Of a DNA stretch of 64,000 nt, positions 639-54,397 are shown in pieces. The stretch's first letter is position 1, and every line of letters begins with the position of its first letter. The stretch is from positions 178,878 through 242,877 of the forward strand of contig NW_026857783.1 in the NCBI RefSeq assembly GCF_026571515.1, given 5' to 3'. Under the pieces are notes generated by a model that made no database searches, had not been told where the DNA came from, and was given only the letters and a program-made list of their open reading frames with translations. Position numbers and translations under genes: made by a program. The stretch is from Ruditapes philippinarum (taxonomy: Eukaryota).

Positions 639-776
639 ATGATGGTAGAGCTTGGATTAGAGAGTGGTAGTATGACAGAAGAGGTTGGTTGTCTGGTAGA
701 ACATATCTGGCTAGAGGCCAATGAAGAAGTGGAAAATGTCCTGTCCTGTGATGTCACAAGTATCAAAGAAGAACAG
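639..776 (+). CDS. PARP4: PARP4-like exon (PARP regulatory/helical domain, N part); window-first resolvable exon
   Basis: ORF MMVELGLESGSMTEEVGCLVEHIWLEANEEVENVLSCDVTSIKEEQ; acceptor tag|ATG at 637-638, donor CAG|gtactt at 777; phase 0 into next exon; weak similarity to PARP helical domain. Confidence 0.45.
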
Positions 777-1452
777 GTACTTAATATTTACATTGATTTA
801 AATTTTTTTAGCTCCTCCTGAGCACAAAGAGCATACATGTACTTCAAGGTGAATTCTTGTAAAAACTGATATTCATAGTCTGTGTTTTGCATTTAGCATA
901 TTGTGTTGTCATCCTCAATTTCTTTAAACACATTTCCTTATCACATGGTAGATTTTTACTAAACTGCAGGAATGATCCTGAAGGGACAGTCCATGAAAAT
1001 CATATATTAAATGATTTCAGTTTGATAAATATGTAGGTCACAGTACCTGAAAATAGACTTTAAAACTGAAGTCTTTAAAGATCTTCAATTCAGAAACTAC
1101 ATTGCCATAAGCTTTGATACTCGCATGTAGCAATACCTTATGGTTTTATACAAAAGTAATATTAACCATGACTACAGGGTCAAATTTGTCCGCCCTTGGG
1201 GTCATTTAGCTTACATAGACTATAAATATTTGTGTATGAACTACACAGCTTTGTGATTAGATATTTGGCATTTAGCATTGTGTTAGTACAGACTTCTACA
1301 AAAGTCATTTTATTCATGGTCCTGGGGCCCATCATGTAATATAATAGATTTACGTTGAAGACCAAAAAAAGCATATTTTGAGATAAGTGCATTCAAAGAT
1401 AAATTGTAGAATTAAACGAAAGTCATGAGGTAATTCTTCGGTAAATTTTCAG

Positions 1453-1626
1453 GTTGAAAAAGCAGAAGCCATTTTGAAACAGATCAAGTCAGCCCTAGAT
1501 ACGAATGATGATAGTAAAATACCCAAACTGATGTCGGATTTCCATTCTACACTACCTCATGATAAGCTGCATCAAGCAGTGACACCAACTAAATACTGGT
1601 TGTCAAGGAAACTGGACCTCTGCCAG
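1453..1626 (+). CDS. PARP4: PARP4-like exon, PARP alpha-helical (regulatory) domain
   Basis: VEKAEAILKQIKSALDTNDDSKIPKLMSDFHSTLPHDKLHQAVTPTKYWLSRKLDLCQ resembles PARP1 ...LSNRFYTLIPHDFG...; acceptor ttttcag|GTT, donor CAG|gtaagt. Confidence 0.75.
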
Positions 1627-2184
1627 GTAAGTTTTCTACTAAAATTTCCATGAAAAAAAAAAAATAAAATAGATTTTTTTTTTACGATTATACCTTTACC
1701 TTTTTTAGAATGAGATAAAATTAACAAAAAAAAAAAAAAAATCACAACATGCTAATTAAATCTTACAACTTCAATAATTATGTAAAAAAATTACTTGCAC
1801 AACCTGATTTTAGGGTGCTTTCTTAGTGCAAACATGACTATTTGAAGACTACTCGAAGTAAAGGAAGAGTTATTTTTCTCAGTCTAGTATCGGCATCGCC
1901 ATCACACTTTAGTCAAGTTTTTGGGTGCAAGTTGGTATCTCCAAAATTACTAAAGGAAATGGGTTGAAACTTCACTCACTTGTTCTTTGTGATTATCTTG
2001 CTTGATGGACACAGGTTCTTTAGTTCTTAGGTATCTTTTTATCAGAGTTATGCCCCTTTTCTTACTGTCAAGCACTGAGAATAGTCAATTTGGCTGTCTT
2101 ACGGACAGTTCTTATTCATATTGATTCTTGAAAACATGAACTTATTAATAGTCAGAAGTAAGACAAACTTATTTGTTTTTGCAG

Positions 2185-2345
2185 TTGGTAAGAGATATGA
2201 TATCTGTTAGTGAGGCCACAAACTTTGCCATGAGAACTAGCACAGTAGCTAAATATAGGTCTCTAAGATGTGGGATAGATTGTTTGAGCCCTTCTAGTAC
2301 AGAATACCACACAGTTAAACAGCTGGTCAGCGATTCAATAGTTGG
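2185..2345 (+). CDS. PARP4: PARP4-like exon, end of helical domain
   Basis: LVRDMISVSEATNFAMRTSTVAKYRSLRCGIDCLSPSSTEYHTVKQLVSDSIVG; acceptor tttttgcag|, donor GG|gtaagc; ends phase 2 and joins next exon in frame. Confidence 0.75.
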
Positions 2346-2489
2346 GTAAGCCTATTAAATTTGAATGATTCCCCAACATAAAAAAAACAACTTTTCTTTA
2401 AAATGCACAATATGTTTCAGAAATCCATATCTTTTTTAATTCTTTTTATAAATGTCATACTGTGGTTCATGAGTTTAATAACATTTTAA

Positions 2490-3204: not shown

Positions 3205-4385
3205 CTTTTTATGCCCCCACAATGTGGGAGCATATAGCGTTGCACTTGTCCGTCCGTCCGTCAGTCCGTCCGCACTCACAGGACAGTAATTATGTGGCTA
3301 GAGGGACAATAGGTAACTGTTCTTTCTCTTTGATGTCATTCATTCCGTAATGCTTTTATGTGGCTATTTTCTTTTGTGTGGCTAAAAAGAACAATAGAGA
3401 GAACAATAGAGTAGCCACATAATTACTGTCCTGTGAGAACTTCCGTCCGTACGTCCCGAAATCTTGTGAACGCAACTCCTCTTAAACCGGATGGCAGATT
3501 TTGCTTAAACAACATTAATGTGTATATGGTAGTAAAGGAAGGAATTTTTGCTGCGACCAAATTTAACAGAATTATGGCCCTTTGTTGATTTTTTCACTAT
3601 ATACTATGTAGAAATTTTGTGAACGCAACTCCTCTTAAACCGGATGGCAGATTTTGCTTAAACTTACAGGGATGAACAACCTTAATGTGTAGATGGTAGT
3701 AAAGGAAGGAATTTTTGCTGCGACCAAATTTAACAGAATTATGGCACTTTGTTGATTTTTTCACTATATACTATGTAGAAATTTTGTGAACGCAACTCCT
3801 CTTAAACCGGATGGCAGATTTTGCTTAAACTTACAGGGATGAACAACCTTAAGGTGTAGATGTTAGTAAAGGAAGGAATTTTTGCTGCGACCAAATTTAA
3901 CAGAATTATGGCCCTTTGTTGATTTTTTCACTAAATACTATGTAGAAATTTTGTGAATGCAACTCCTCTTAAACCGGATGGCAGATTTTGCTTAAACTTC
4001 CAGGGATGAACAACCTTAATGTGTAGATGGTAGTAAAGGAAGGAATTTTTGCTGCGACCAAATTTAACAGAATTATGGCCCTTTGTTGATTTTTTCACTA
4101 TATACTATGTAGAAATTTTGTGAATGCAACTCCTCTTAAACCGGATGGCAGATAATGCTTAAACTGGCAGGGATGAACAACCTTAATGTGTAGATGGTAG
4201 TAAAGGAAGGAATTTTTGCTGCGACCAAATTTAACAGAATTATGGCCCTTTGTTGATTTTTAGTTTTTCAACTTGTGGCACATGTAGTCCAAAAAATATT
4301 TGACCTAGAGTCATAAGATTGACAGAACAGTGGCGTGTGGGGGCATCCGTGTCCTATGGACACATTTCTAGTTCCATCAGTAAAG
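3205..4385 (+). mobile_element. non-autonomous TIR element (ATGCCCCCAC...GTGGGGGCAT) with (GTCC)n head, internal hairpin and 4.5 copies of a 180-bp satellite (3440-4260)
   Basis: termini atgcccccacaatgtggg (3211) and gtgggggcatccgtg (4340); inverted repeat cacaggacagtaattatgtggctag / tagccacataattactgtcctgtgag; near-identical element at 47440-48110. Confidence 0.6.
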
Positions 4386-4540: not shown

Positions 4541-4678
4541 AGATTGTCAGATCAATATTGTTGACATCTTTGCTGTAAATCGCCCGGTGGAGAGCAGCAA
4601 CTTCCTGTGGCATATCTCCAATAAACAACTTCTCTTCCACGCATCTAAAGCTAACAATATAGTTGGAATCTTATCCAG
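4541..4678 (+). CDS. PARP4: PARP catalytic domain exon (NAD-binding His block)
   Basis: DCQINIVDIFAVNRPVESSNFLWHISNKQLLFHASKANNIVGILSRGL parallels PARP1 YDLEVIDIF...[21 protein letters not shown] (H conserved, G to A); acceptor tatattacag|, donor CAG|gtaatt. Confidence 0.85.
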
Positions 4679-5794: not shown

Positions 5795-5893
5795 AGGGTT
5801 GTTAATGCCGAGGGTTGTAGTGGAGGATCATGGAGGTACAAGGTCTGATCCTGGCATGTTGGGATCTGGTATTTACTTTGCAAGTGCTGCAAG
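5795..5893 (+). CDS. PARP4: PARP catalytic domain exon (GIYFA tyrosine block)
   Basis: LLMPRVVVEDHGGTRSDPGMLGSGIYFASAAR parallels PARP1 ...GYMFGKGIYFADM; acceptor tatttcag|, donor AAG|gtaatg; phase consistent. Confidence 0.85.
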
Positions 5894-6650: not shown

Positions 6651-6834
6651 TACAAGTGTTGGTTATTCTCTGGCAAGTAAAACAAAAGGGTCAAGGTTTA
6701 TGCTGGTCAGTGAGGTTGCCTTGGGCAGGTGTATGGATACGTATCAGAAAGATTTGACCTTGACCTCTGCTCCAGAAGGTTATAACAGTGTACATGGTGT
6801 GAAATCTTCTCCAGGAGAACAATCTGCATTTAAG
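6651..6834 (+). CDS. PARP4: PARP catalytic domain exon
   Basis: STSVGYSLASKTKGSRFMLVSEVALGRCMDTYQKDLTLTSAPEGYNSVHGVKSSPGEQSAFK parallels PARP1 VSKSANYC...LLGEVALGNMYEL...KGKHSVKGLGKTTPDPSA; acceptor caatttttag|, donor AAG|gtacta. Confidence 0.85.
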
Positions 6835-7372: not shown

Positions 7373-7526
7373 GATGATGAGTATGTGATATACAGCCCGA
7401 ATCAACAAAGACTGAAATATCTAGTAGAGTTTACTACAAAAACTGATGAAGTGAAGAGGACTTTTGAAGAGCTTGTAACCCTGGATGAAATGATGATATC
7501 TGATGATGAAGATTCTGATGTTATAA
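7373..7526 (+). CDS. PARP4: PARP catalytic domain exon (catalytic Glu block)
   Basis: DDEYVIYSPNQQRLKYLVEFTTKTDEV... parallels PARP1 [22 protein letters not shown]; acceptor ttttattacag|, donor A|gtatgt; ends phase 1. Confidence 0.85.
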
Positions 7527-8048: not shown

Positions 8049-8179
8049 GTTTGAAAGATGTCAAGGACATTACAGACCCTATGTCAAAGGTCAAGGCCGG
8101 TCTTGTCTCCAAGGACGATGCACCGGTTAACCTTAAATCTGTACATGTTCGTGCTAAACTGATGGATTTGGCATCTGAG
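8049..8179 (+). CDS. PARP4: VIT (vault protein inter-alpha-trypsin) domain exon 1
   Basis: SLKDVKDITDPMSKVKAGLVSKDDAPVNLKSVHVRAKLMDLASE; acceptor cttattag|, donor GAG|gtaaat; phase 1 to 0. Confidence 0.8.
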
Positions 8180-8500: not shown

Positions 8501-9235
8501 TATACCCCCGCACAACAAAGTTGTAAGGGGGTATACTGGAATCAGCTTGTCTGTCCGACCGTCCAGCTGTCTGGCCGTATGGCGTCCGTCGTTTTTTTCT
8601 TGTCCGCCCAATAACTTAAGAATCCTTTGACCCACAGTCTTCATATTTGGCATGGAAGTTAGTCATAATCAGTAGATGACCCCTATTGATTTTGAGGTCA
8701 CTGGGTCAAAGGTCAAGGTCACAGGGGCCTTGACTTCAAAAAGCTTGTCCGCCCAAAAACTTAAGGTTCCTTTGACCCACAGTCTTCATATTTGGCATGG
8801 AGGTTAGTCGTGATTAGTAGATGACCCCTATTGATTTTGAGGTCACCAGGTCAAAGGTCAAGGTCACAGGGGCCTTGACTTCAAAAAGCTTGTCCGCCCA
8901 AAAACTTAAGGTTCCTATGACCCACAGTCTTCATATTTGGCATGGAGGTTAGTCATGATTAGTAAATGATCCGTATTGATTTTGAGGTCACTGGGTCAAA
9001 GGTCAAGGTCACAGGGACCTTGTCAAAATAAAGCTTTTCCCCAATGCCTGTCCAGAGTGTATTGATTTTGACATTTTCACATTTGAAGCATGTAGAATAC
9101 ATAACTTAGCAATGCACTGGCTTAGTCACCTCAGATTTGGCAGGGTGGTTGTCCTTGAGTTCTAAATGGCCACTGTTGATTCTGACAAAGTGGTATGCGG
9201 GGGTATTCACGCCATGATAGTGGCAGTTCTAGTTT
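8501..9235 (+). mobile_element. TIR element (TATACCCCCG...CGGGGGTATT) carrying a 139-bp satellite (~3.5 units)
   Basis: 5' tatacccccgcacaacaaagttgtaagggggtatactggaatcagcttgtctgtccg; 3' ggtatgcgggggtattcacgccatgatagtggcagttctagttt; same family as 39347-41095. Confidence 0.6.
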
Positions 9236-9568: not shown

Positions 9569-9793
9569 GTGGTTGTGTTGCAAGAATATGAAAACAACAG
9601 TAAGAACCCTCTAGAAGCAAAGTATGTATTCCCACTAGGAGATCTAGCTGCTGTTTGTGGGTTTGAAGCATTTATCAATGGAAAACATATCATTGGGGAA
9701 GTGAAGGAAAAAGAGCAAGCCCATAAAGAATATAAGAAGGCAATTAGTGAAGGGCATGGTGCTTATCTTATGGACCAAGATGAGGAAACTCCT
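9569..9793 (+). CDS. PARP4: VIT domain exon 2
   Basis: VVVLQEYENNSKNPLEAKYVFPLGDLAAVCGFEAFINGKHIIGEVKEKEQAHKEYKKAISEGHGAYLMDQDEETP; acceptor tattttag|, donor CCT|gtaagt; 75 codons phase 0. Confidence 0.85.
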
Positions 9794-10876: not shown

Positions 10877-11038
10877 GATGTGTTTACAGTCAGCGTGGGC
10901 AACCTACCACCTGGGGCAACCGTGCTCATCAAGATCACATATGTGGCAGAGTTACAGGTGGAAGGGGAAATGATCAGCTTTAGGTTGCCCGGAAGTGTGG
11001 CTCCTTGGAAGAAAGATTCATTGAAGGAAACTACACAG
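10877..11038 (+). CDS. PARP4: VIT domain exon 3
   Basis: DVFTVSVGNLPPGATVLIKITYVAELQVEGEMISFRLPGSVAPWKKDSLKETTQ; acceptor ttattaccag|, donor CAG|gtatga. Confidence 0.85.
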
Positions 11039-11924: not shown

Positions 11925-12038
11925 CATGAGACAGAAACCATAGAGGTTAAACAAGGGGAGACAAGTCTACAGGTTTCTGTAGAGATGCCCTTTGACATAA
12001 GGTCGATTGAATGTCCTTCACAAAAGATAAAGGTCAAG
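11925..12038 (+). CDS. PARP4: VIT domain C-terminal exon
   Basis: HETETIEVKQGETSLQVSVEMPFDIRSIECPSQKIKVK; acceptor tcttgttccag|, donor AAG|gtgagt; 38 codons. Confidence 0.7.
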
Positions 12039-12741: not shown

Positions 12742-12879
12742 AGGACATTAACAAAAGCAACAATTGAAATGTTGGAAGGAGAATCTATTGGGGATGGTTT
12801 CCAGCTTTTGATTGGTTTAGCTGAGATACATGTACCAAGAATGTGGGTGGAACGGAAACCAGACGATCAGAATCATCAG
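12742..12879 (+). CDS. PARP4: VIT-VWA linker exon
   Basis: RTLTKATIEMLEGESIGDGFQLLIGLAEIHVPRMWVERKPDDQNHQ; acceptor atattttacag|, donor CAG|gtgatt; MITE copy begins 26 bp downstream. Confidence 0.7.
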
Positions 12880-12905: not shown

Positions 12906-13128
12906 GAGCGGCATCATGACAAAACCAACATAATGCGACCAGCATTGATCCAGACCAGCCTGCGCATCCGTGCAGTTTGATCAGGATCCATGCTAGCAGT
13001 TTCTTTACTTGTTATAGGGTCTGTAGGCGAACAGCATGGATCCTGATCAGACTGCGCGGATGCACAGACTGGTCTGGATCCATGCTGGTTGCAAACCCAT
13101 GATGTTGGTTTTGTCATGGCGCGGCTCA
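12906..13128. mobile_element. MITE (family M), full copy with AAAT target-site duplication
   Basis: TIR gagcggcatcatgacaaaaccaacat ... atgttggttttgtcatggcgcggctc; internal palindromic core cctgcgcatccgtgcag / ctgcgcggatgcacag; flanks aaat|...|aaat. Confidence 0.8.
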
Positions 13129-13764
13129 AATGAGATTCAAGGATGCAATGTTGAGTTAAAATATTGGGGATATGTGTTTGTTTCTCTGTTCAATGCAGAA
13201 TGAATACCTAATCTGATGTATTTTGAACTATATAGCCAAGAATGAAAATAAAACGGCATGTGTTCATGACTAGAATATAATTTGATCTGTCAAACAGAAC
13301 AATAAATTTTCTACTTATTTCATGCTTTCCAGCTGTTTTCTGATTATTTCCTTGATTTCATAGCTACCACTTCATGACATCTTCAAATTATGACATCACA
13401 ATATCCAGGTTGATAAAAAAATAGTTGTGTAAAGTTTTTATCAAAGGATGTTTTTCAAAAATTAATGATCATGAATCTTTTATGTACTGACATGGAGTAT
13501 TGTTTAACAGATTATTTTTAAGAGCCATAGGTTCTTTTTATTTTTAGATATTTCTTAACCATGCCAATAAAAACAAAAGCTAAACAATTGGCATTTAGGA
13601 ATATATTAATTTACACATGTACAATTAAATGTCATGTCCCTGAAGAAAGAAAATTTGAAAATTGAAAGAAAATGCTAATTAACTTCTTGTTTACTCTATG
13701 ATTGTAAGAGATCATACAATTGTCAGATGTTTGTATATATTTTTTTCTTATCTTGTTTATAAAG

Positions 13765-13951
13765 GCATGCATGTTGGCATTTTACCCAGAATTTGAGGCG
13801 TGCGAGACGGATGATGTAAACATGATTCTACTGCTGGATCTGTCCAATTCTATGAAAGGAGATGCCATTGTTAGTGCCAAAAAAGTTTTACTGCTGACCC
13901 TTCAACATTTACCTTCCACCTGGAACTTTAATGTCATAGTGTTTGGAACAG
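13765..13951 (+). CDS. PARP4: VWA domain exon with MIDAS motif
   Basis: ACMLAFYPEFEACETDDVNMILLLDLSNSMKGDAIVSAKKVLLLTLQHLPSTWNFNVIVFGT; DLSNS is a DxSxS MIDAS motif; acceptor tttataaag|, donor G|gtgtgt. Confidence 0.85.
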
Positions 13952-14751: not shown

Positions 14752-14825
14752 CCTGGAAAGAGTTGTTTCCCACTTGTGTAGCTAAAACTTCATCAAATAT
14801 GAAACAAGCATCAGAGTTTGTGATG
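14752..14825 (+). CDS. PARP4: VWA domain exon
   Basis: AWKELFPTCVAKTSSNMKQASEFVM; acceptor gtttatttcag|, donor ATG|gtaaat; phase 1 to 0. Confidence 0.65.
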
Positions 14826-16817: not shown

Positions 16818-17005
16818 AGCTTGTCTCCAACTATGGGTAACACAGAGGTTGTGAGGCCACTACATACATTCTACCTGATGAAACAGGAAAACTCCATGCA
16901 GAATGTGTTACTTATATCTGACGGACATATGAACAACACGGAACTGTTACTAAATAGTGTACGAACAAATTGCCAACATACCAGAGTGTTTACTGTAGGA
17001 GTCAG
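16818..17005 (+). CDS. PARP4: VWA domain exon
   Basis: SLSPTMGNTEVVRPLHTFYLMKQENSMQNVLLISDGHMNNTELLLNSVRTNCQHTRVFTVGV (VLLISDG... and VFTVGVG-type VWA blocks); acceptor atatttcag|, donor AG|gtaaat. Confidence 0.8.
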
Positions 17006-17745: not shown

Positions 17746-17911
17746 AGCTCAGTCTGATCAGGATCCATGCTGTTCACTATCAGTTTCTCTACTTGTAATA
17801 GAGTTGGTAAGCGAACAGCATGGATCCTGATCAGACTGCGCGGATGCACAGGTTGATCTGGATCCATGCTGGTCACAAATGCGCAATGTTGGTTTTGTCG
17901 TGACGCGGCTC
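17746..17911. mobile_element. MITE family M, 5'-truncated copy abutting acceptor of exon 17928
   Basis: ...cagtctgatcaggatccatgctgttcactatcag...atgttggttttgtcgtgacgcggctc then atttatgtttttacag|TGG. Confidence 0.75.
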
Positions 17912-36173: not shown

Positions 36174-36241
36174 TATCTGGACGGCCAAGCTTTGGTGGTG
36201 GTGGAATGCCTGATAGTGTGGAAATGGACCAGAAAAAAAAG
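36174..36241 (+). CDS. short exon (SFGGGG motif)
   Basis: (V)SGRPSFGGGGMPDSVEMDQKKK; acceptor tgttacatttcag|, donor G|gtaatt; phase 1 to 0 and in frame with the big exon at 41161. Confidence 0.5.
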
Positions 36242-39346: not shown

Positions 39347-41095
39347 TTATACCTCCCAACAACGAAATTGTAAGGGGTGTATACTGGAATCAGCTTGTCT
39401 GTCCGTCCGTCAATCTGGCCATCCATTGGTTTTGGCTTGTACGCCCATTAACTTAAGATTCCTTTGACCAACAGCCTGCATAATTGACATGGAGGTTAGT
39501 CATGACTAGTAGATGACCCCTATTGATTTTGAGGTCACTAGGTCAAAGGTCAATGTTACCGGGACCTTGACTAAGAAAAGCTTGTCCGCCCAATAACTTA
39601 ATAAAGCTTTGACCCACAGTCTTTATATTTGCCATGGAGGTTAGTCATGATTAGTAGATGACCCCTATTGATTTTTAGGGCACTGGGTCAAAGGTCAAGG
39701 TCAAATGGACTTTGACTTCAAAAAATTTGTCCGCCCAATAACTTAAGAAACCTTTGACCCACAGTCTTCATATTTGGCATGGAGGTTAGTCATGATTAGT
39801 AGATGACCCCTATTGATTTTGAGGTCACTTGGTCAAAAGTCAAAGTCACAGGGGCCTTTACTATAAAAGCTTGTCCGCCAAATAACTTAAGTTTCCTTTA
39901 ACCACAGTCTTCATATTGGCCATGGAGGTTAGTCATGATTAGTAGATGACCCCTTTTGATTTTGAGGTCATTGGGTCAAAGGTCAAGGTCACAGAGACCT
40001 TGACATTAAAAAGTTTGTCCACCCAATAACTTAAGAAACCTTTGACCAACAGTCTTCATATTTGGCATGGAGGTTAGTCATGATTAGTAGATGACTCCTA
40101 TTGATTTTGAGGTCACTGGGTGAAAGGTTAAGGTCACAGAGGCCTTAACTATAAAAAGCTTGTCAGCCCAATAACTTAAGAAAGCTTTGACCCACAGTCT
40201 TCATATTTGGCAAGGAGGTTAGTCATGATTTGTAAATGACCCCTATAGATTTTGAAGTCACTAGGTCAAAGATCAATGTTACCCGAACCTTGACTAAGAA
40301 AAGCTTGTCCGCCCAATAACTTAAGAAAGCTTTGACCTAAAGTCTTTATATTTGCCATGCATGTTAGTCATGATAAATAGATGACCCCTATTGATTTTGA
40401 GGTCACTGGGTGAAAGGTTAAGGTCACAGGGGCCTTTACTATAAAAAGCTTGTCCGCCCAATAACTTAAGAAAGCTTTGACCTAAAGTCTTTATATTTGC
40501 CATGCATGTTAGTCATGATTAATAGATGACCTCTATAGATTTTGAGGTCACTGGGTCAAAGGTCAAGGTCACATGGACTTTGACTTCAAAAAGTTTGTCT
40601 GCCCAATAACTTAAGAAACCTTTGACCCACAGTCTTCATATTTGGCATGGAGGTTGATCATGACCATTAGGTGGCTCCTATTGATTTTTAGGTCACTGGG
40701 TCAAAGGTCAAGGTCACAGGGACCTTGATTAAAAAAGCTTTTCCCGTCAAATGCTTAAGAATGCTTTGGTCAACAGTCTTCATTTTTGTTATTGAGGTTG
40801 TTTATGACTAGTAGATGGCCTCTATTGATTTTTAGTTGACTGTGTCAAAGGTCAAGGTCACAGGGATTTTTACTAGAATAAGTTTGTCTTCTCAAATGCT
40901 TAAGAATGCCTGTCTGCAGTGTATTGATTTTGACATTCTCACATTTGAAGTATGTAGAATACATAACTTAGCAATGCACTGACTTAGTAACCACAGATTT
41001 GGCAGGGAGGTTGTCCTTGAGCTCTAAATGGCCACTGTTGATTCTGACAAAGAGGTATGCGGGGGTATTCACGCCATGACAGTGGTAGTTCTAGT
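39347..41095 (+). mobile_element. TIR element (TATACCTCCCAAC.../...GCGGGGGTATTCAC) with ~11 units of the 139-bp satellite; same family as 8501-9235
   Basis: 5' tatacctcccaacaacgaaattgtaaggggtgtatactggaatcagcttgtctgtccgtccgtc; 3' aagaggtatgcgggggtattcacgccatgacagtggtagttctagttt; ends 66 bp before acceptor of exon 41161. Confidence 0.65.
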
Positions 41096-41160: not shown

Positions 41161-42444
41161 AAAAAACCAGCAAGGAGAGCAATGAAGTCACATTTCAAAG
41201 CTCCTGAATCATCAAGTATTAGTTCACAAGCAGAAAAAGCAGAAACTGGCCTCCCTTCTCATCTTCATTTGAGTAATTGTTCCATGGCACCACAGTTGCA
41301 TCAGCTAATGGCACCACAATTGCAGCAAATGGCACCACAATTGCAGCCGCAAATGGCACCACAATTTCAGCAGCACATAGCACCACAGGTGCATCAACAA
41401 ATGGCACCACAATTGCAACAGCCACAACAACAGCTAGATATGCCACAACCTAATGCAAGAACTGATAAATTTATGTCTAGGTCTAAGCCTCCTAAATTTA
41501 TGTCTAGGTCTAAGCCTCTTGAAACTTATTCTGCATTGGAAAGGTCTGATGAATCATTGATGCATCAGATGGATAAAATTCCAACAGTGCATAATTATTT
41601 TTCAACAAGTTCTCCTTTTTCTCCTGCACCATTGAGTGCACCACCACCACCCCCACCTCCTCCAGGGGATACCCCAAGACCCACACCACAACTAGGGGTT
41701 GCTATTATTCCTTCATCTTTTCAAGTAGCATCTAGTTATCAAGCTCAGATACCAAGTTTTGGTTTTGGTGCAACAACGGGTGCATCACCACAACCCCCAC
41801 CTTCATCAAATAATGCGACTATACCACCCCCATGTCCTCCAATGCTTGCCCACAGATTCCAACCATCGAGAGCTCCAAGCTATTTATCTTTCGAAGTAGA
41901 GCCTAGATATGCAGCTAAAGCACCAAGTTTTGCTTTTAGTGCAACAACGGGTGCATCTCCACCACCACCACCTCCTTCAAAGGAAGCTCACAGACCACCA
42001 CCTCCACCAGGGGGTGCCCCCAGACCAACACCACCACCACCTCCAGGGGGTGCTCCCAGACCACCACCACCTCCAGGGGGTGCTCCCAGACCAGCACCAC
42101 CACCACCTCCAAGGGATGCTCCCAGACCTCCAGCTTCTCCAAGGGGTGCTCCTAGCCCTTCATCTTCTCTAGTAACATCTAGACATCCAGCTCCAGATCC
42201 AAGTTTTTCTTTTGGTGCAACAACTGGTGGATCTTTGGAAATGCTAAAAAGTTGTCCCAATATTAGCCCTATTAAGAGGATGATTGCAATGTCATTATCT
42301 AAATCTGCTGTTGATGATAATGATATGGAGTTTACCAAAGCCTCTAAGCAGGAAAGCAAAGAAATACCTGAGAAGAAAAGCATTGAAGCTCATGTTAGAA
42401 GAAATTATGGGGGAAGGAGGGTAGATATGCGTGAACTTCAAGAG
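41161..42444 (+). CDS. 1284-nt low-complexity exon: Q/P-rich MAPQLQQ repeats, FG-type PSFGFGATTGASP repeats, polyproline PPPPGGAPRP repeats
   Basis: long ORF in frame from acceptor ttttttttgcatacag| (41159-41160) to donor GAG|gtttgt (42445); 428 codons; repeat structure explains the overlapping antisense ORFs. Confidence 0.7.
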
Positions 42445-43545: not shown

Positions 43546-44999
43546 GTTTGAGCTGTACTGATACAGTTGACTCTCAGTACATCAAGTCCTGTCAAAATTT
43601 CTTCTTATATATTTGAACATCCTTTATGTCTAATCAAATTTTTACTCCAGATGGAGTAATTTTTATACTTAAAATTTTATAGTCCTGTTGTCCTGACAAT
43701 TAGATTTAAACCTTTTTTTTTTTTTACACAAAAAATTGAAACATTGAGACAGCCAATGATCAAAGATCGGAACATCAAGGTGAAATATTGTCATATTGGC
43801 TGACACATAAAGTATGATTGTTTATTGCTAGTACAATGTATATTAAAAACTACTGGTCATCATGTGGAATTGACATGCTCTAAATATTGCTTTACAGGTT
43901 TTAATACCTCCACTCTAGGGGGTGGGTGGGATTTAGATTTGTTCTTTGTCAGGCTGTCTGTCTGTGCGTGTGTTCTCATGTTGTGTCACATGTAGCTCTA
44001 AAAGTGCTTGAGCCAAAGTCAACTAACTTTAAAAGGAATGTTTATCAGCATGTGAAGCTGTGCACCTGGGGGGGGGGGGGGGTATGGGGATTAATTCAGT
44101 TTTGTCAGTGTTATTGCCCTTGACTTGGTAAAAATGGCCAATTTTCAATATGTGTCGCCTGTAGCCAAAAAGATATTTGACATGGAGTCTTGAATCTTTA
44201 CAGGAATGCTGGTCAGCATGTGTTATTCATTTGGGGAATAAATTTGTTGTTTTTATTCCCCAACCACTTAATGTTAAGGGGTGTCATGAAGAATTTCCTT
44301 TGCCTATCCCTATTTCATACCTTCCTACTGTATGTCAGTAGACTGACAAAACAGTGGAGTGTGGGAGCATCTGTGTTCTATGGACTCATTTCTTGTTTAC
44401 CGTAAGATACTTAAATCTCAGTTTTATTGAGAAAATTTATTATGCAAACATTATATGTTTTATTTGTTCTGTATAATATATGCATACATTAATGTATACT
44501 TCCAATTCAAGAGATTTCCTATATTTTGTTTTAATACAAATGGTGAAATATACCTTTTTTCCAGCAGGTGTTTTGGATATTGGTAAATCTAATATTAGTT
44601 ATATGATTGTGTGCATTTCAGATTGATAATTATCCTGCGTGCATTACATGAACATGTTCTGTTGATTATTTTCTTATTAAGTATTGATAAGTGATTCATA
44701 CACAGTGCACCAGTTAGCATTTAGAAGTAGACCTACAACTTTGTACAATCCCTCCATTTAAAACAGGTACAAAGTATTACAAGGCAATTAATTGCACCTT
44801 TTAAATCAAATTCCATTTATCTCAAAGTAAATTATGCCGGGTTCCTTGAAATTCTAGATACTCTCAGAGTAAACTGTTTGTATTTTATTTATGGTTAAAT
44901 GACTTTCTTTTATATTTATGAAATGGCCAAAAAAATATTCAAGATAATTTCCCATCCGTCTCCATTTTCGTGTCCGCTCTATAAATCCTATACCAATTG

Positions 45000-45829: not shown

Positions 45830-45959
45830 GATTCCCTGAATGTTTCTAAAGAGGACGAACTTGAACAAGAACTAAGAAAAGAAATGGAAGAAGAGAGGAG
45901 CAAACCACAGGTATCTTGGAGGGCAATGTCTATGCCTAGAAGTGAAAGAATATGTGATG
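45830..45959 (+). CDS. charged exon
   Basis: DSLNVSKEDELEQELRKEMEEERSKPQVSWRAMSMPRSERICD(G); acceptor tttcctttcaag|, donor G|gtaagt; only this donor (not CAG|gtatct at 45911) keeps downstream exons open. Confidence 0.5.
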
Positions 45960-47439: not shown

Positions 47440-48110
47440 ATGTGGGAGCATATAGCGTTGCACTTGTCCGTTAGTCCGTCCGTCCGTCAGTTTGTCCAGC
47501 CGTACGTCCCGAAATCTTGTGAACGCAACTCCTCTTAAACCAGATGGCAGATTTTCCTTAAACTTACAGGGATGAACAACCTTAATGTGTAGATGGTAGT
47601 AAAGGAAGGAATTTTCGCTGCGACCAAATTTAACAGAATTATGGCCCTTTGTTGATTTTTTCACTAGATACTATGTAGAAATTTTTTGAACGCAACTCCT
47701 CTTAAACCGGATGGCAGATTTTGCTTAAACTTACAGGGATGAACAACCTTCAGGTGTAGATGGTAGTAAAGGAAGGAATTTTCGCTGCGACCAAATTTTA
47801 CAGAATTATGGCCCTTTGTTGATTTTTTCACTATATACTATGTAGAAATTTTGTGAACGCAACTCCTCTTAAACCGGATGGCAGATTTTGCTGAAACTTA
47901 CAGGGATGAACAACCTTCAGGTGTAGATGGTAGTAAAGGAAGGAATTTTGCTGCGACCAAATTTAACAGAATTATGGCCCTTTGTTGATTTTTAGCTTTC
48001 AACTTGTGGCACATGTAGTCCAAAAAATATTTGACCTAGAGTCATAAGATTGACAGAACAGTGGCGTGTGAGGGCATCCGTGTCCTATGGACACATTTCT
48101 AGTCTTTAAA
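47440..48110 (+). mobile_element. second copy of the ATGCCCCCAC...GTGAGGGCAT element with 3 units of the 180-bp satellite
   Basis: near-identical to 3205-4385 (ttattatgcccccacaatgtgggagcatatagcgttgcacttgtccg ... cagtggcgtgtgagggcatccgtgtcctatggacacatttctag). Confidence 0.65.
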
Positions 48111-48224
48111 TGTTTCTGTAGTCCTAAACTCACTTAATTTGTTAAATTGATTTAACTGCTTTGAATTTTAAAAAAAGGTCAGTATTAAAGTACAAAAATT
48201 AAGCAACCAAAAGTATATAGCGTG

Positions 48225-48815
48225 GTCAGACTGCACAGATGTTCAGGCTAGCCTGGTCAGACTGCATAGATGTTCAGAGCTAACTTGGTCAGACTGCACA
48301 GATGTTCAGGCTAGCCTGGTCAGACTGCACAGTTGTTCAGGCTAGCCTGGTCAGACTACACAGTTGTTCAGGCTAGCGTGGTCAGACTACACAGATGTTC
48401 AGGCTAGCCTGGTCAGACTGCACAGATGTTCAGGCTAGCCAGGTCAGACTGCATAGATGTTCAGGCAAGCCTGGTCAGACTGCATAGATGTTCAGGCTAC
48501 CCTGGTCAGACTGCATAGATGTTCAGACTAGCCTGGTCAGACTGCATAGATGTTCAGGCTACCCTGGTCAGACTGTGCATTTGTTTAGTCTAGCCTGATC
48601 AGACTGCACATATGTTCAGACTAGCCTGGTCAGACTTCACAGTTGTTCAGGCTAGCCTGTTCATACTGCACAGATGTTCAGGCTACCCTGGTCAGACTGT
48701 GCAGATGACCAGGCTAGCCTGATAAGACTGCACAGATGTTCAATCTAGCCTGGTCAGACTGCAGAGATGTTCAGGCTAACCTGGTCAAACTGCACAGATT
48801 TTCAGGCTAGCCTTG
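48225..48815 (+). repeat. 31-32-bp minisatellite, ~19 units, derived from MITE family M core
   Basis: unit cctggtcagactgcacagatgttcaggctag is ~24/31 identical to the MITE segment cctgatcagactgcgcggatgcgcaggctgg. Confidence 0.8.
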
Positions 48816-49007
48816 GTTTATATTTATTTTTATTTAAAAAAAAACAGGTTTAATGTCAAACCAAGATTTGTTGTTTTGGGCATTCTTAAGAGATCTTGTT
48901 TTCCTGTATTTTGTTATTGTCCTTGACTTTATGAAGTCTAATAATGAAGTTTGGTCAAACCACTCTAGCATGTGCATCTTTGTTCAGCTGTTTGTGCAGT
49001 TATAATT

Positions 49008-49212
49008 GAGCCGTGTCACAACAAAACCAACATAATTGGTTTACGACCAGCACAGTCTGATCAGGATCCATGCTGTTCGCTATCAGTATCTCTACTTGTT
49101 TTAGGGTTTGTAAGCGAACAGCATGGATCCTGATCAGATCTGGGGATGCACAGGCTGGTCTTGATCCATGCTAGTCGCAACCCATTATGTTGGTTTTGTC
49201 ATAGTGCGGCTC
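49008..49212. mobile_element. MITE family M (internally deleted copy)
   Basis: gagccgtgtcacaacaaaaccaacataattggtttacgaccagcacagtctgatcaggatccatgctg...atgttggttttgtcatagtgcggctc. Confidence 0.7.
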
Positions 49213-49343: not shown

Positions 49344-49418
49344 GCTCAATTATTAGCCAGGGGTTACGTTTTGGTGCGAGTCGTAAAGTTGTGGTTGAGA
49401 AAGAACAAGAGAAAAGAG
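49344..49418 (+). CDS. short exon
   Basis: (G)SIISQGLRFGASRKVVVEKEQEKR; acceptor gatattttag|, donor G|gtaaaa; phase 1 to 1. Confidence 0.4.
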
Positions 49419-49632: not shown

Positions 49633-49871
49633 AGCCGCGTCATGACAAAACCAACATAATGGGTTTGCGACCAGCATGGGTCCAGACTAGCCTGCGCATC
49701 CGTGCAGTCTGAAAGGATCCATACTGTTCGCTATCAGTTTATTTACTTGTTACATGTATAGGGTCTGTGAGCAAACAGCATGGATCCTGATCAGACTGTG
49801 TGGATATGCAGGCTGGTATGGATCCATGCTGGTCGCAAACGCATTATGTTGGTTTTGTCGTGACGCGGCTC
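49633..49871. mobile_element. MITE family M, full copy
   Basis: gagccgcgtcatgacaaaaccaacataatgggtttgcgaccagcatgggtccagactagcctgcgcatccgtgcagtctgaaaggatcc...tcgtgacgcggctc. Confidence 0.8.
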
Positions 49872-50805
49872 AGTATTCAGTATTCAAAACATAGAAAGGC
49901 AAAGGAAACATTTGTTTTTATTGAACTTGTTACATTTCATAAGTTTCTTTAATAATCAAATTTCGAAATACCTAAATACGGCAGCCAACTTTTTATCTAC
50001 TTTTCCATAATTCTTTATGATTGCTCATTTTGAATGATAATGAAATAATTTGAAGTCCGAAATATTTCACTAACACACTATAGTTTCTTTATTTTCAATG
50101 CCCCCCAAGGGCCATACATTCTTTCAAAACAAGAGTGCTTTTAAAACCCCAGGTTGTGTTGTTTAATGTTAGTATATTTATGTCTAATATTTGTCATAAT
50201 GTCTTGATCAGTGTTAGCTTGACAAATTATATTTCAACACAACAAAAGAAATTGTATTATTTGGTATTTCCTTTTGTTGGCTTTTTTAGATTCCTAGATC
50301 TTCAAATAGGGCACAAAGAATATTTTGTTTTAGTTAGAAGTGCATAGAAATAACATTGCTAGCCTAAATGATTAGGTACTAGAGATTGGAGTTTGAATTG
50401 TGCAGAAAATGCTTGAAATTTGATAATTTAATGAAACAAATGAAAAACTTCCAACAGATAAGACTAAATTTGTAAAAGCATCCATCTTCGACCATGTCTG
50501 ACAAAATTATATATGAAATGGTGGTGTTTGTAGATCTCACTCCAGATTACGGCAAATAAAGCAACATTGCATTTACCAGTGCACAATTTAGCCACTGCTA
50601 ACTGAAAAGGTGCCAAAAAACATCTATAATTATATATAACAACAACAACCAATCAAATTGCCCGTTATATTCCATAATTAAATTTTATTTGTAAACAAAA
50701 TGCTGCAAATATTGCAAGATGATACATATTTCACCAACAATATCCAAAGATCATTTTTTTATTGTTTAACTGTTAATCTAATGATTCACTGTTCATTTTA
50801 TTCAG

Positions 50806-50927
50806 CAGAAATTTCTAGAGGAACTCGGCTATACGAGTATGGTATAGGAATGCAGATACCTTGTATCATCAGCGGACGTGGACTGGTGTTCCCTGATCTA
50901 GGTCAGGTTGTGAAAATGCAGAATCTG
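50806..50927 (+). CDS. C-terminal domain exon
   Basis: AEISRGTRLYEYGIGMQIPCIISGRGLVFPDLGQVVKMQNL; acceptor cattttattcag|, donor CTG|gtaagt. Confidence 0.55.
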
Positions 50928-52249
50928 GTAAGTACAATCAGGTAGCTTTTAGTGTAAAAGTATTGCTTTCAGACTATACAACCATGTATAATATAGTGCA
51001 GATACACTGATGTCCCAGTCCAATTTGTTTGACAAATGGATGCAATAAGTAATGTAAGCTTGGAAAAGTGTACTAGTAACTTGAACAAGGGTGAGCATAT
51101 AGTCGCCGCTTTGTCCGTCCGTGCATCCGCTCTCACGGGACAGTAAAAATGTGGCTAGTGGGACAATAGGTAATTGTTCTTTCTCTTTGATGTCATTCAT
51201 TCCACGATGCTTTTATGTGGCTATTTTCTTTTGTGTGGATAGAGAACAATAGAGTAGCCACATTATTACTGTCTCATTGGAACATAACTCGGACATAACT
51301 CTGAAACCGTAAGAGGTATCAACATGAAACTTTGTAGGAAGATTGGTCTCATTATATAGAAGTGCAGTGCAAAAGAACCATAACTCTGCCTTGCTTAATT
51401 TGGTTATAGTTATTGCCCTTTGTTCATTTTTATGCTTTGAACTATGTCTGTGACATAACTCTGACACTACATGAGGTATACTTACCTGTGTCCAAAACCT
51501 ATTCAGGGAGCATCACTTGGTTTAACTGCTTCTTGTCTTGACTATAAGAATAGTGCTTGAGCTTTCATATGCAAAAAGAGTAAGTTTTCATGCATCTGCA
51601 TCAACATATCACTTTAATTATGGTGTTGTGTGCAACTTCTTGAACAATTTCATGTCTCATGAGTCAAAGATATTTGCTTGAAACTTAAAAAGTTAAAAGT
51701 TTTTGAACCATAATTCAAGGTTTAATTCTCAAAGATGCAAAAAGTTAGTATGCATATTGACTGAATTATGGCCCTCTGAACTTTGAAAATTACTGGTTAA
51801 AGTTTATTTTTTCCAAGCCTTAAAACTCAATTTTGCTAGTCTAGGTATTCACTTGACTCTAGTATCATAACCAGGGGTCACTTTCCACTGCCCATAATTC
51901 TCGTGTGGATTAAAATATAGCCCTTCTTCCTGGTTCAGTTTAGTGTGCAAGATCTATTCACTTGAAGTCCTTAACACAGTCATGTGTTTCGGATCATAAT
52001 CACATGCTTATGTAAGTGAGGAGAACCTTTGAAAGTACTTTGTATATTATTTTATAAAAAAAAACTTGACACTTGTAACATCCATAAATGGCAATATGTC
52101 AAATATGCATGAGTACTCATTTTCGTTGCTTTGTCAAAACATACCGGTTACTATGATAACTAATTGACATTTGATTCTGATGATTCCATTGAAAACAAGT
52201 ACAATAAGCTGCTTTAATACAAAAAACAAATCATTGCTTTGTTTTACAG

Positions 52250-52349
52250 AATGGTTACTGGGAGATGAATGATAATTTGGAGAAATTACTCTGCATTGAC
52301 TTCAGTATCTGTAAATCTGTTCTGGAGACAGCTGGCTTAAAATCACTAG
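52250..52349 (+). CDS. C-terminal domain exon (NGYWE motif; possible VIT/VWA-family C-terminal/MVP-binding-like region)
   Basis: NGYWEMNDNLEKLLCIDFSICKSVLETAGLKSL(G); acceptor tttgttttacag|, donor TAG|gttggt. Confidence 0.55.
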
Positions 52350-52789
52350 GTTGGTATCATTTTATTGGCATTTTTCTAACCCTTTTCCTGTGTGATGGAA
52401 TTGCCGGATGATCAGTTGGAAATATTTCATTCACAGTTTAATGACATGCAATTCAAAATATAAAAAGTTGAGACAACCAACCTACAACCTAGTGCAGGGT
52501 TGTCACACTATTTCAAACGTTTCTCACCACAGTGTTGGAGCAGTACAAGATCCAGACCCTTCCAGAAATCATGATCACAAAGTAGAAAAATATTGTTTGA
52601 GCCTTTTTTTCGATAATTCTGATATTTTTTGATAGTTCTTATATTTTTCATTCATTATGATATATAAATCAGGAGATTGAGTATTTAATCATTGAAGGGC
52701 CTTGTCCAGAATTGTACCGGAATATGCTATTAAGTACTGTACTCCAACACTTTTTGTCCCCTACCGGTTTAACTGGAGGGGACTTTAGG

Positions 52790-53175
52790 TTTACCCTCCG
52801 TCCATCTGTCTGTCCGTCTGTCTGTCAGTCCATCAGTCCGTCCGTCCACAAAACTGGATCCCGCAATAACGCAAAAAGTACTGAAAATATTTTTATGAAA
52901 CTTGATATATGGATAGATGGCAGTATGGAGATTATGCACGTCTTTTTCTTTTCTTCCTATGTTGAAAATTCTGGTTGCTATGGCAACAAATAGTCTGAAA
53001 ATATGGCAAATTTAACACATAAACTGGATCCAGTGATAACTCAAAAAGTACTGAAAATATTTTTATGAAACTTGTAAAATGGATAGATGCCAGTCTGCAG
53101 ATTATGCACATCTTTTTCTTTTCTTCCTATGTTAAAAATTCTGGTTGCTATGGCAACAAATAGCCTGAATTTCAA
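52790..53175 (+). repeat. (GTCY)n head + ~180-bp tandem repeat x2
   Basis: ccgtccatctgtctgtccgtctgtctgtcagtccatcagtccgtccgtcc then two units aaactggatcc..ataac.caaaaagtactgaaaatatttttatgaaacttg...ttctggttgctatggcaacaaatag. Confidence 0.65.
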
Positions 53176-53987
53176 GATTTCTGATTTAAATTTTTCAGCT
53201 TTTTCACTATAAGTTCTTTATTTCTTAAGGTGTTTACTTCAAACTTTAAATATAAGTTTCTGGTCATCAACCACATCATATGTGACAAGGTTTACAACTC
53301 TAGCACAAAATCAGTATTACCACCCTTGAACTTAGAATTTTTATGAAAAAAAAAATGTCTTCTTTAAATAACTTCTTTATTTCCTAATGTATCTACTTCA
53401 AACTTCATATATATGTTTCTTATTATCACTCAACATTTTTGAGAAGGTTAAATACTCTAGCAAGACTATTTCCAGAATTATGTCCCCCTTGAACTTAGAT
53501 TTTTTTCGAGAAATTGGTATTTTTTGGTAACTTCTTCATTCCTTATAGGATTTACTTTAAAATCCCACATCATAATAATATGACAAGGTTGTATAAACAT
53601 AATTTCCTTACTAGGCAGGGAAACTTAACACATTACTGTGAAATAGACAAACTTAGAACTCAAAAGATTTAAGTTCATTCGTGTCATTTATTCACTGGTA
53701 AAATTGAAATCAGAATGTTGCTGGGGTTCTAATCGGTAGGGGACTTATGGATTGCTTGCAATACTATGATAATTGCTTGTTTACTCTCACTTGACTATTT
53801 TTAGCAGGGAAACGTTTACGATTAATGAATTTCATAAATAAATATTTCACTAATAAAAGTCCTTACTTAACACTAACAGAGATGTTATGATCATCTTGTG
53901 ATTTTGTTGATGGCAAGAAAACCTTAGTTTTGTGACAACTTCATGTCACTTGTATAATTATGATAATGATGATGTCATTTATTACAG

Positions 53988-54397
53988 GATTAAAATGCCA
54001 CGAGGAAATTCTTCACCTTATTTCCACCGCCATAGTACTGATGCAAATGTTCAAGCTTCTGTTGCCACAAGCGTTTCCTCGTAACTGTAAGCTATACTTC
54101 GATGACAGTCAGGATGCCGTCATGATCAAATTGGTGTCTGAAAAAATCGAAATTACAAAATTTGATCCGGCTGGTACAGACAGGGATACAGTAAGGACGG
54201 CAATAGATATGGCTTTTGAATTCTGGGTATGGGCAGATAAAAGACACCCACTGGTTTGTACGAGTCTAGAGCTGGGGTCAAACTGGTACGAATTTGTTGG
54301 ACGCTGTTTGAACTTGCATAGAGAAGGCATTAGCCCAAAAATACAGGAGAAAACAATGTTTGCGAAAAGCACTGTAAAACAACCGATTTTGGTATAA
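53988..54397 (+). CDS. terminal coding exon with TAA stop
   Basis: (G)LKCHEEILHLISTAIVLMQMFKLLLPQAFP...WVWADKRHPLVCTSLELGSNWYEFVGRCLNLHREGISPKIQEKTMFAKSTVKQPILV*; acceptor catttattacag|; total CDS 639-54397 is 6639 nt, a multiple of 3. Confidence 0.6.

Follow-up and report, generated by a model that had tools for sequence, protein, structure and literature searches.

A PARP4 gene of the clam Ruditapes philippinarum and the host-protein copies in its tail

The locus and the rebuilt exon chain

The stretch of DNA analysed here, referred to as the window, comprises 64,000 nucleotides of the clam Ruditapes philippinarum (assembly GCF_026571515.1, contig NW_026857783.1, positions 178,878 to 242,877). 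Our results suggest that its plus strand from 639 to 54397 holds the 3' ~90% of a single gene of this heterodont bivalve for PARP4, the vault poly-ADP-ribose polymerase, and that the tail of the encoded protein, which carries in-frame copies of host proteins, acts as an interaction platform; taken together, these two statements are probable. The window is AT-rich (~34% GC) and has many satellite arrays and repeats resembling short interspersed elements (SINE). Between 0.6 and 54.4 kb the plus strand has protein-like stop-free stretches, including open frames of 454 and 211 codons, and the longest stop-free stretch of the minus strand, of 134 codons, lies inside repeats. An Rfam scan of the window found no RNA family. 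The AATAAA signal occurs at ~1.2 per kb across the whole window, which makes its presence at 23.6-24.1 kb uninformative.

The gene was rebuilt from homology and splice sites, independently of the exon list of a first-pass annotation of the same DNA. An intermediate model, obtained after boundary fixing, had 36 exons and 6504 nt; the exon at 26775-26834 was added through a YKT6-guided search and that at 49344-49418 through a scan for phase-compatible exons of 75 nt. The resulting model has 38 exons, all on the plus strand, and 6639 nt, which correspond to 2212 codons plus a TAA at 54395-54397, with no internal stop and with GT-AG at all introns. The first-pass annotation had arrived at identical numbers (38 exons, 6639 nt, 2213 codons including the TAA and no internal stop), and the three junctions on which it had made its case depend, 23087>24350, 29426>33448 and 42444>45830, are all in the rebuilt model.

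Agreement of this kind has to be weighed against how easily a chain closes in such DNA. A naive chain, built by dynamic programming on codon bias and scores of splice sites, also closed, between 1453 and 54397, with the help of filler exons in SINEs and satellites, and those at 25606-25632, 27674-27793, 29849-30057, 43953-44081, 47885-47920, 48417-48442 and 49795-49815 were dropped on comparison with homologues. Because the naive chain closes through repeat-borne fillers, phase matching alone is weak evidence. That naive chaining always closes in AT-rich sequence by way of small fillers favours the explanation that the downstream chain consists of fortuitous open frames or is a decaying pseudogene region, and so does the failure of a first C-terminal homology search, built partly on wrong exons, to give a match. 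Against this explanation, almost every exon has homology, all splice sites are canonical, the 428-codon and 202-codon exons far exceed the minus-strand maximum and are thus far above background, and there is purifying selection on the core and on the ubiquitin-like domain (UBL). We give chance or artefact next to no probability and regard it as effectively refuted.

The repeats can be described in their own right. The SINE-like element (..MDPDQTARM.RLVWIHAG..) is found on both strands, at 12917-13200, 17601-17909, 23194-23441, 27534-27965, 48969-49130 and 49691-49891; it also occurs in the clam Mercenaria mercenaria (locus L001, 90073-90437) and was the source of false exons in naive chaining. 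Satellite arrays, with periods of 145, 166/167, 31, 139 and 173 bp, lie in introns and in the 3' flank (39435-40888, 8599-9022, 30263-31649, 3508-4261, 47511-47993, 48218-48813, 15049-15962 and 54548-55621). The 145-bp and 167-bp families are each present in more than one intron, and a 173-bp array begins ~150 bp past the stop codon.

A crude concatenation of the first 23 kb, used as query, returned PARP4 proteins only, in keeping with the vault-PARP-like character that the first-pass annotation had given to this part. The best match was a Mercenaria PARP4-like protein (P0001, 1778 aa), with 82% identity over 100% of the query, and a tblastn search of the window with P0001 located 25 exons between 639 and 25872 that correspond one by one. 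All best matches of the core are PARP4. The window begins at residue ~258 of P0001, and what stands at 639 is the acceptor of an internal exon (aactag|ATGATG), shortly preceded by an in-frame stop. The gene start that had been placed at 639 is thereby refuted: by comparison with P0001, the ATG at this position is not the start codon, and ~257 N-terminal residues, including the BRCT exons, lie upstream of the window. BRCT is present in P0001 (Pfam) and is expected at the corresponding place in the clam gene.

Exon 1 (639-776, aa 1-46) is an internal PARP4 exon that matches P0001 aa 258-303. The PARP regulatory (helical) domain (Pfam PARP_reg, aa 41-113) is carried by exon 2 (1453-1626, aa 47-104), placed by tblastn with P0001, and exon 3 (2185-2345, aa 105-158) holds the end of the helical domain and the start of the catalytic domain (Pfam PARP, aa 142-319, 120.8 bits). 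The latter continues through exons 4 (4541-4678, aa 158-204), 5 (5795-5893, aa 204-237) and 6 (6651-6834, aa 237-298) and ends in exon 7 (7373-7526, aa 299-350). Its H-Y-E triad is intact and can be read in the model, with the His in exon 4 (LLFHASK), the Tyr in exon 5 (GIYFAS, within GSGIYFAS) and the Glu in exon 7 (DDEYVIY). Between the window and Mercenaria the catalytic domain differs at proportions of 0.135 for nonsynonymous (pN) and 0.689 for synonymous (pS) sites.

The VIT domain (Pfam, aa 378-490, 126.6 bits) starts in exon 8 (8049-8179, aa 350-393), continues in exon 9 (9569-9793, aa 394-468), which has 97% identity to Mercenaria with pN 0.017 against pS 0.77, and ends in exon 10 (10877-11038, aa 469-522; 98% identity). 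Exons 11 (11925-12038, aa 523-560) and 12 (12742-12879, aa 561-606) match P0001 and lead to the vWA domain (Pfam VWA/VWA_3, aa 625-780; VWA_3 72.5 bits), which begins in exon 13 (13765-13951, aa 607-669) with the MIDAS motif DxSxS in the form DLSNS, runs through exons 14 (14752-14825, aa 669-693) and 15 (16818-17005, aa 694-756) and ends in exon 16 (17928-18027, aa 756-789). Further P0001 matches follow in exons 17 (18392-18562, aa 790-846), 18 (18927-19007, aa 847-873), 19 (19261-19341, aa 874-900) and 21 (21040-21132, aa 935-965), and exon 20 (20097-20198, aa 901-934) contains the motif FTSFVAIEKR. Exon 22 (22246-22395, aa 966-1015) is a fast-evolving linker with 43% identity to Mercenaria and pN 0.38; exon 23 (23015-23087, aa 1016-1040) is the last before the UBL.

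The tail, its modules and the C-terminus

The first-pass annotation had also claimed an in-frame UBL, a YKT6-type SNARE helix and a mimic of the P-stalk tail downstream of the core. Pfam, PDB and comparison with Mercenaria show that the three are real, and the Pfam check on the model found PARP_reg, PARP, VIT, VWA, ubiquitin and Synaptobrevin, as had been predicted.

The UBL (aa 1050-1123) is encoded in two halves by exons 24 (24350-24453, aa 1040-1074) and 25 (25726-25870, aa 1075-1123), with the intron at K27|A28. It matches PF00240 with 84.7 bits over 72/72 positions and has 69% identity to ubiquitin; K6, K11, K27 and K33 are kept, K48 and K63 are replaced (K48R, K63N), and the domain ends in LRLRGG followed by Pro and more than 1000 further residues. 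Fusions of ubiquitin to Pro resist most deubiquitinases. Since the UBL is internal, has Pro after GG, lacks K48 and K63 and is split by an intron, it is most likely not releasable and not able to form K48 or K63 chains, and would be retained in the protein. Values of pN 0.113 and pS 0.793 (saturated) between the window and Mercenaria, comparable to those of the catalytic domain, point to clear purifying selection. A UBL is found in 10 public mollusc PARP4 models besides the window, 1 of a bivalve (Mercenaria) and 9 of gastropods. The first-pass suggestion of a new domain combination thus holds insofar as we found no paper describing it in the literature searched, and fails insofar as PARP4 with ubiquitin is already present in those 10 models.

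A linker in exon 26 (26196-26248, aa 1123-1140; GPSEDQVLKFKKARGLLK), which resembles GPGDEPVLKRRIARS of Mercenaria, leads to a SNARE motif at aa 1141-1198, 18 residues past the UBL. The motif lies on two phase 0-0 exons, its N-terminal half in exon 27 (26775-26834, aa 1141-1160), found by tblastn with human YKT6 and bounded by ccag| and |gtaagt, and its C-terminal half in exon 28 (28033-28134, aa 1161-1194), with the zero-layer Arg in LERGEKLD; its end (ARSR) is in exon 29 (29203-29426, aa 1195-1269). It matches PF00957 Synaptobrevin with 32.3 bits (cut-off 26.4) and YKT6 in PDB (6j74_C, E 2.3e-7), with 51% identity over 55 aa to human YKT6. The Pfam scan of the model found no longin domain, the motif following directly after the UBL linker, and there is no C-terminal membrane anchor (CCAIM lipidation or transmembrane helix), the motif running instead into ..FYKTARSRIDDDMERMN.. 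and an acidic stretch. By these features it is a complete copy of the motif and not a member of the YKT6/R-SNARE family. At the same spot Mercenaria differs in having a SNAP-25 C-terminal-type SNARE motif (L001 60942-61061; PDB E 2.8e-5) fused to the linker exon, and in a reciprocal search neither a SNAP-25-like remnant in the window nor a YKT6-like exon in Mercenaria turned up.

After the SNARE motif, exon 29 continues into the acidic Glu/Asp/Ser stretch and ends at an intron of the same phase as in Mercenaria. Exon 30 (33448-33484, aa 1269-1281) is a micro-exon of 37 nt whose Mercenaria counterpart (L001 ~73989) agrees in its phases (2/1, then 0) and contains the motif ESD.N. The large acidic exon 31 (34059-34665, aa 1282-1484; Mercenaria counterpart 83803-84603) contains the P-stalk tail mimic DSDDESCDDDMGFDLFGG (34218-34271), which copies the acidic C-terminal peptide ..SDDDMGFGLFD ([DE]n-MGFGLFD) of ribosomal P1/P2 and is similar to the human P2 tail. 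It is the only island of this exon that is conserved in Mercenaria (SESEESEEEMGFSLF; EEEMGFSLFE), the exon having otherwise 29% identity and pN 0.50. A motif scan gave the P-stalk motif in the window model and in 6 other mollusc and 3 fish PARP4 models, and blastp gave a 4th fish (P0075). In Aplysia PARP4 the Pfam match to Ribosomal_60s reaches 25.9 bits, below the cut-off of 28.1. The window protein has no Pfam Ribosomal_60s domain and its motif is internal, not at the extreme C-terminus; the element is only a mimic and not a stalk protein. Past the mimic, 34470-34560 (..EPEFAYCLSMEKDYTEPMEECYEDDDIYENPEVEYEGQ..) is Tyr/Glu-rich with YENP- and YEGQ-type motifs, and Mercenaria has a stretch of similar composition (EFYAETYEPEDLLEED..LYEDVYADTD). 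Exon 32 (36174-36241, aa 1484-1506) corresponds to the last exon annotated in Mercenaria, again with the same phases (1/2, then 0).

The largest exon of the model, exon 33 (41161-42444, aa 1507-1934), is the 428-codon open frame and contains MAPQLQQ repeats, three FG-like repeats of the form PSF[GAS]F[GS]ATTG and PPPPPGGAPRP repeats. It resembles the PARP4 tails of Patiria and Rhopilema and is the positional counterpart of exon 30 of human PARP4. The FG and polyproline modules of the first-pass annotation are therefore present, but they are no peculiarity of the clam, for Pro-rich and FG-like stretches before the MVP-binding domain already occur in starfish, jellyfish, hydroid, chiton and fish PARP4. 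With three repeats and no Pfam Nucleoporin_FG match, the window protein is not counted among FG nucleoporins; chiton PARP4 does match Nucleoporin_FG (35.5 bits).

Exon 34 (45830-45959, aa 1935-1978) encodes a charged stretch and QVSWRAMSMP, with 88% identity to P0126, and Mercenaria has QVSWRAESVP at L001 101102. The RxxSxP within this exon (QVSWRAMSMPRSER; WRAESVP in Mercenaria) has the form of a 14-3-3 mode-1 site, and VSWRK or VSWRT precedes the MVP-binding domain in the tails of scallop, pearl oyster and Elysia. Exon 35 (49344-49418, aa 1978-2003) is the sole phase-compatible 75-nt candidate outside repeats with good splice sites in its intron; its resemblance to shark PARP4 (LAFGSVQREKEDTEK) was seen by eye and carries no alignment statistic.

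The last three exons encode a domain that the first-pass annotation had taken for a hydrophobic module foreign to PARP4. Exon 36 (50806-50927, aa 2003-2043) contains its start (..VVKMQNL; IKIFQMQHSEGYWE in fish), with 64% identity to P0164 that ends at the donor. Exon 37 (52250-52349, aa 2044-2077; NGYWEMNDNLEKLL..AGLKSLG) is matched by fish, shark and jellyfish PARP4 in tblastn and has 91% identity to P0135, and exon 38 (53988-54397, aa 2077-2212 plus TAA; ..HPLVCTSLELGSNWYEF..) holds the rest (fish PARP4 tblastn, E 9e-7). The PARP4 tails of jellyfish, hydroid, starfish, shark and fish all align to the last two of these exons. Pfam PF26156 gave no match for any protein, even fish PARP4, and hhalign was used instead: against a profile of 7 PARP4 C-termini (fish, shark, jellyfish, hydroid) the last 210 residues of the window protein score a probability of 98.9% and E 3.5e-17. 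On this alignment the canonical MVP-binding domain of PARP4 (PARP4_MVP-ID) makes up the C-terminal 180 aa, which refutes the idea of a foreign module, and since the C-terminus is that of PARP4, the gene runs to 54397.

One gene or two transcription units

With this C-terminus in place, together with merged models elsewhere and intron phases common to the window and Mercenaria, one gene is the best reading, and comparison across species makes it very probable that a single gene covers the whole span. The alternative of a stand-alone UBL-SNARE gene, which the first-pass annotation had kept as a fallback, is not supported. The Mercenaria model uses a junction into the UBL equivalent to 23087>24350, and the intron phases around 29426|33448-33484|34059 and 34665|36174-36241|41161 are common to both clams.

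A further proposal is that of two transcription units, a gene for PARP4, UBL, SNARE and acidic stretch that ends at ~36.2 kb and a gene for the Pro/FG and MVP-binding parts that begins at ~41.1 kb. It is favoured by the Mercenaria model, which ends after the counterpart of exon 36174-36241 and short of the Pro-rich exon, and by split annotations, with a 5' 'PARP4-like' and a 3' model, in Aplysia, Pinctada, Littorina, Ylistrum, Plakobranchus and Elysia. Both the window (41131, MNKSSFFCIQ|KKP) and Mercenaria (L001 ~98104, MFSYLQ|KKK) have an in-frame ATG 6-10 codons 5' of the Pro-rich exon acceptor, which also favours two units; it could mark an internal alternative first exon or be due to chance in AT-rich DNA.

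The details of the Mercenaria locus speak against this proposal. The annotated last exon (L001 92300-92379) ends AAG|GTATCTGATTAA, its stop codon being in donor read-through, and the window has no conserved equivalent of the read-through peptide. About 6 kb further 3', on the same strand, lies an unannotated Pro-rich exon (L001 98050-99499) that is similar to window 41161-42444 (E 7e-24) and is followed by QVSWRAESVP, as QVSWRAMSMP follows in the window; in both species the Pro-rich exon has a good acceptor and is in phase with the preceding exon. Gene prediction would be broken by an apparent frameshift around 98534-98610, which may be why the predictor stopped early, and the Mercenaria model thus seems truncated. 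A tblastx comparison of the window tail with the Mercenaria locus was swamped by common repeats and uninformative.

Other genomes point in the same direction. In vertebrates and cnidarians it is the MVP-binding domain that defines the PARP4 C-terminus, and an exhaustive HMMER search with the last 278 residues of the window protein returned 57 proteins, those checked being PARP4 C-termini. Merged models that reach from the core through the MVP-binding domain are known from Potamilus streckersoni (2363 aa, from BRCT), Liolophura sinensis (2150 aa) and Branchiostoma belcheri, 8 PARP4-like isoforms of Argopecten irradians span vWA to the MVP-binding domain, and P0127 has UBL, DDDMGFGLFD and MVP-binding domain in one model. 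As for the split cases, in Aplysia (L002/L004, KB941528.1 820902-869453 and 879520-890750), where the 5' model is flagged partial, and in Pinctada (L003/L005, VSWD01000007.1) the two models lie 10-22 kb apart on the same strand, and in Littorina, Ylistrum, Plakobranchus and Elysia they are on one contig and on the same strand. The 3' models go by the names 'POM121' (Aplysia), 'rpb1' (Plakobranchus), 'SRRM1-like' (Elysia), 'uncharacterized' (Littorina, Ylistrum) and 'hypothetical' (Pinctada), and are probably the 3' halves of PARP4 genes. Weighing both sides, we consider two transcription units improbable. PARP4 models in 7 mollusc genomes (Mercenaria and the six split cases) look truncated or split, and with the 3' halves misnamed or uncharacterised in those six, the architecture is hidden from domain surveys.

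Host-protein copies in PARP4 tails and their possible role

Between vWA and the MVP-binding domain, the window protein has a long, mostly disordered and fast-evolving tail, and the copies it carries would be interaction surfaces: the tail would be bound by proteins whose normal docking sites are on ubiquitin, SNAREs or the P-stalk, be they host partners or pathogen toxins and effectors, and docking would bring them to the ADP-ribosyltransferase domain, into the vault, or both. In vertebrates the C-terminal domain of PARP4 anchors the protein inside the vault by binding MVP. The PARP4 C-terminus is held at the vault waist, with the remaining protein disordered in the lumen (Lodwick 2025, PMC12280208). 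In mammals, positive selection has acted recurrently on exon 30 of PARP4, which is disordered, and its proposed role is to make contact with factors of pathogens, so that these are ADP-ribosylated or delivered to vaults (Daugherty 2014, PMC4038475). The clam tail would be the molluscan form of this fast-evolving interface, and a role as an interaction or bait platform is likely.

Copies of host proteins are not confined to clams. For their detection, reference sequences of ubiquitin, actin, 14-3-3, H3, P2, calmodulin, HSP70, the RNA polymerase II C-terminal domain (CTD) and SNAREs were used; Pfam and PDB independently confirm all modules except the H3 tail and the CTD, which are directly readable in the sequences. 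Actin residues ~1-65 are present in PARP4 tails of jellyfish, oysters, mussel, pearl oyster, acorn worm and brittle star (57-73% identity; Pfam Actin up to 41.8 bits), the C-terminal half of 14-3-3 in amphioxus (Branchiostoma) and hemichordates (Ptychodera, 75.9 bits), and the HSP70 substrate-binding domain in Pinctada and Magallana (122.6 bits). RNA polymerase II CTD heptads occur in Aplysia, Plakobranchus, Elysia and one fish, SNAP-25 motifs in an anchovy (Engraulis) PARP4-like protein, and a 14-3-3 helix, a P-stalk mimic and an R-SNARE-like helix together in Branchiostoma belcheri. The N-terminal tail of histone H3, with lysines replaced, is found in Littorina (RTNQTARMSTGGKAP) and Batillaria (SRTRQTARRSTGGRAPR); the former copy (P0007, aa 1332-1352) has K4N and K9M and the latter (P0004, aa 1558-1574) K4R, K9R and K14R, and both are reminiscent of H3 peptides that are non-modifiable or inhibitor-like. 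In the window protein itself, the search detected no piece of 14-3-3, actin, H3 or calmodulin.

Two candidates were set aside. The calmodulin-like end of Pinctada P0008 (aa 1402-1549, after the actin fragment), with 81% identity and a natural C-terminus, was not counted, since the predictor may have wrongly fused a nested calmodulin gene here, and a SNAP-25-like helix in Potamilus, plausible by eye, fell short of E 0.01, so that we make no claim for it.

These copies raise a possibility that we put forward tentatively, namely that the hypervariable tail of animal PARP4 is an array of integrated decoys, made of copies of host proteins that pathogen toxins or effectors dock on, modify or cleave. 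The modules would be ubiquitin, the actin N-terminus with its D-loop, 14-3-3, the HSP70 substrate-binding domain, the H3 tail, the RNA polymerase II CTD, the P-stalk tail and YKT6- and SNAP-25-type SNAREs, and the array, tethered to the ADP-ribosyltransferase and through the MVP-binding domain to the vault, would capture factors for ADP-ribosylation or sequestration. If decoys they are, an arms race would have left its trace in the YKT6-for-SNAP-25 difference between the two clams, and vaults and PARP4 would have a concrete, testable innate-immune function.

The copies could also have accumulated neutrally, as accidental exonised fragments or retrocopies tolerated in the disordered linker of one PARP4 gene and without function of their own. 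The donor genes (ubiquitin, actin, 14-3-3, HSP70, histone H3, RPLP, SNAREs) all give abundant transcripts, the rest of the tail evolves very fast (pN 0.50 for the large acidic exon), not even two clams have the same set of modules, and the SNARE exons are symmetric phase 0-0 cassettes, typical of exon shuffling. Against such accretion, the UBL is under clear purifying selection (pN 0.11, pS 0.79) and common to bivalve and gastropod PARP4, and the P-stalk motif is a conserved island that recurs in molluscs and fish. Nor are the fragments random, being docking or modification epitopes such as the H3 tail, CTD heptads, SNARE motifs and the last ~11 residues of P-proteins, and the same kinds of module recur in distant phyla. 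Neutral accretion is, in our judgement, rather unlikely.

Several points weigh against a single PARP4 gene with a tail that serves as a platform. The splice junctions are inferred and the status as a single transcript is argued from comparative evidence only, exon 49344-49418 is weakly supported, and the split annotations and the short Mercenaria model described above could be a sign that the long transcript is rare or absent. Binding by the modules is inferred from sequence alone, and the modules come from very highly expressed genes, the likeliest source of retrocopies that a disordered linker would tolerate when they are accidentally exonised in it. In MVP, conservation of the residues to which PARP4 binds is limited to vertebrates, and binding between MVP and PARP4 of invertebrates has been doubted (Lodwick 2025, PMC12280208); given this vertebrate-only conservation, vault anchoring in molluscs is not assured.

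The function of PARP4 and the vault has been an open question for decades, and recognisable copies of host proteins turn a vague interface into a testable list of ligands: ubiquitin binders and deubiquitinases, proteins that cleave or bind SNAREs, and toxins and GTPases that bind the P-stalk. The main value of the clam gene lies in the wider pattern of PARP4 tails to which it points. In the literature searched, which left most subscription journals outside its scope, we could not find this pattern described, nor a paper on ubiquitin, SNARE, P-stalk, actin, H3, HSP70 or CTD modules in PARP4; 14-3-3 is the only tail fusion that we found described there.

Among the closest known systems is the Mercenaria PARP4-like protein (P0001), an orthologue with the same exon structure, UBL position, UBL intron and RLRGGP as the window, and with the acidic stretch and the EEEMGFSLFE motif. 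Its model differs in lacking both the MVP-binding domain and the Pro-rich exon, although the latter and the QVSWRA exon can be seen in 10 kb of downstream DNA. Vertebrate and cnidarian PARP4 (Q9UKK3 type; P0032, P0040, P0061) have the same order of PARP helical and catalytic domains, VIT, vWA, disordered tail and MVP-binding domain, their tail is likewise fast-evolving with Pro-rich and FG-like stretches, and in human PARP4 the largest exon (exon 30), like exon 33 of the window, stands just before the MVP-binding domain; the window differs from them in the ubiquitin domain, the YKT6 SNARE motif and the strong copy of the P-stalk tail. Ubiquitin-fusion genes (UBA52, RPS27A, polyubiquitin) also encode a near-canonical ubiquitin in frame with another protein, whereas the ubiquitin of the window is internal, followed by Pro, split by an intron and without K48 and K63.

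A 14-3-3 domain has been described on PARP4-like proteins of amoebae, lancelet and sea urchin (Perina 2014, PMC4245714). These fusions, which we confirmed in Branchiostoma and Ptychodera, likewise place a piece of an abundant host protein after vWA; the window differs in having ubiquitin, SNARE and P-stalk modules, and the paper treats 14-3-3 as a signalling domain and does not place it within a broader pattern. The integrated decoys of plant NLRs and the NLRP1/CARD8 'tripwire' offer a more distant parallel. PARP4 is not an NLR, its output would be ADP-ribosylation or vault sequestration, and, as it is known here by the sequence similarity of its modules alone, membership in such systems cannot be claimed. 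The resemblance is one of concept, in that a defence-linked protein carries a copy of a pathogen target, and, as in the decoys of plant NLRs, content turns over fast between lineages.

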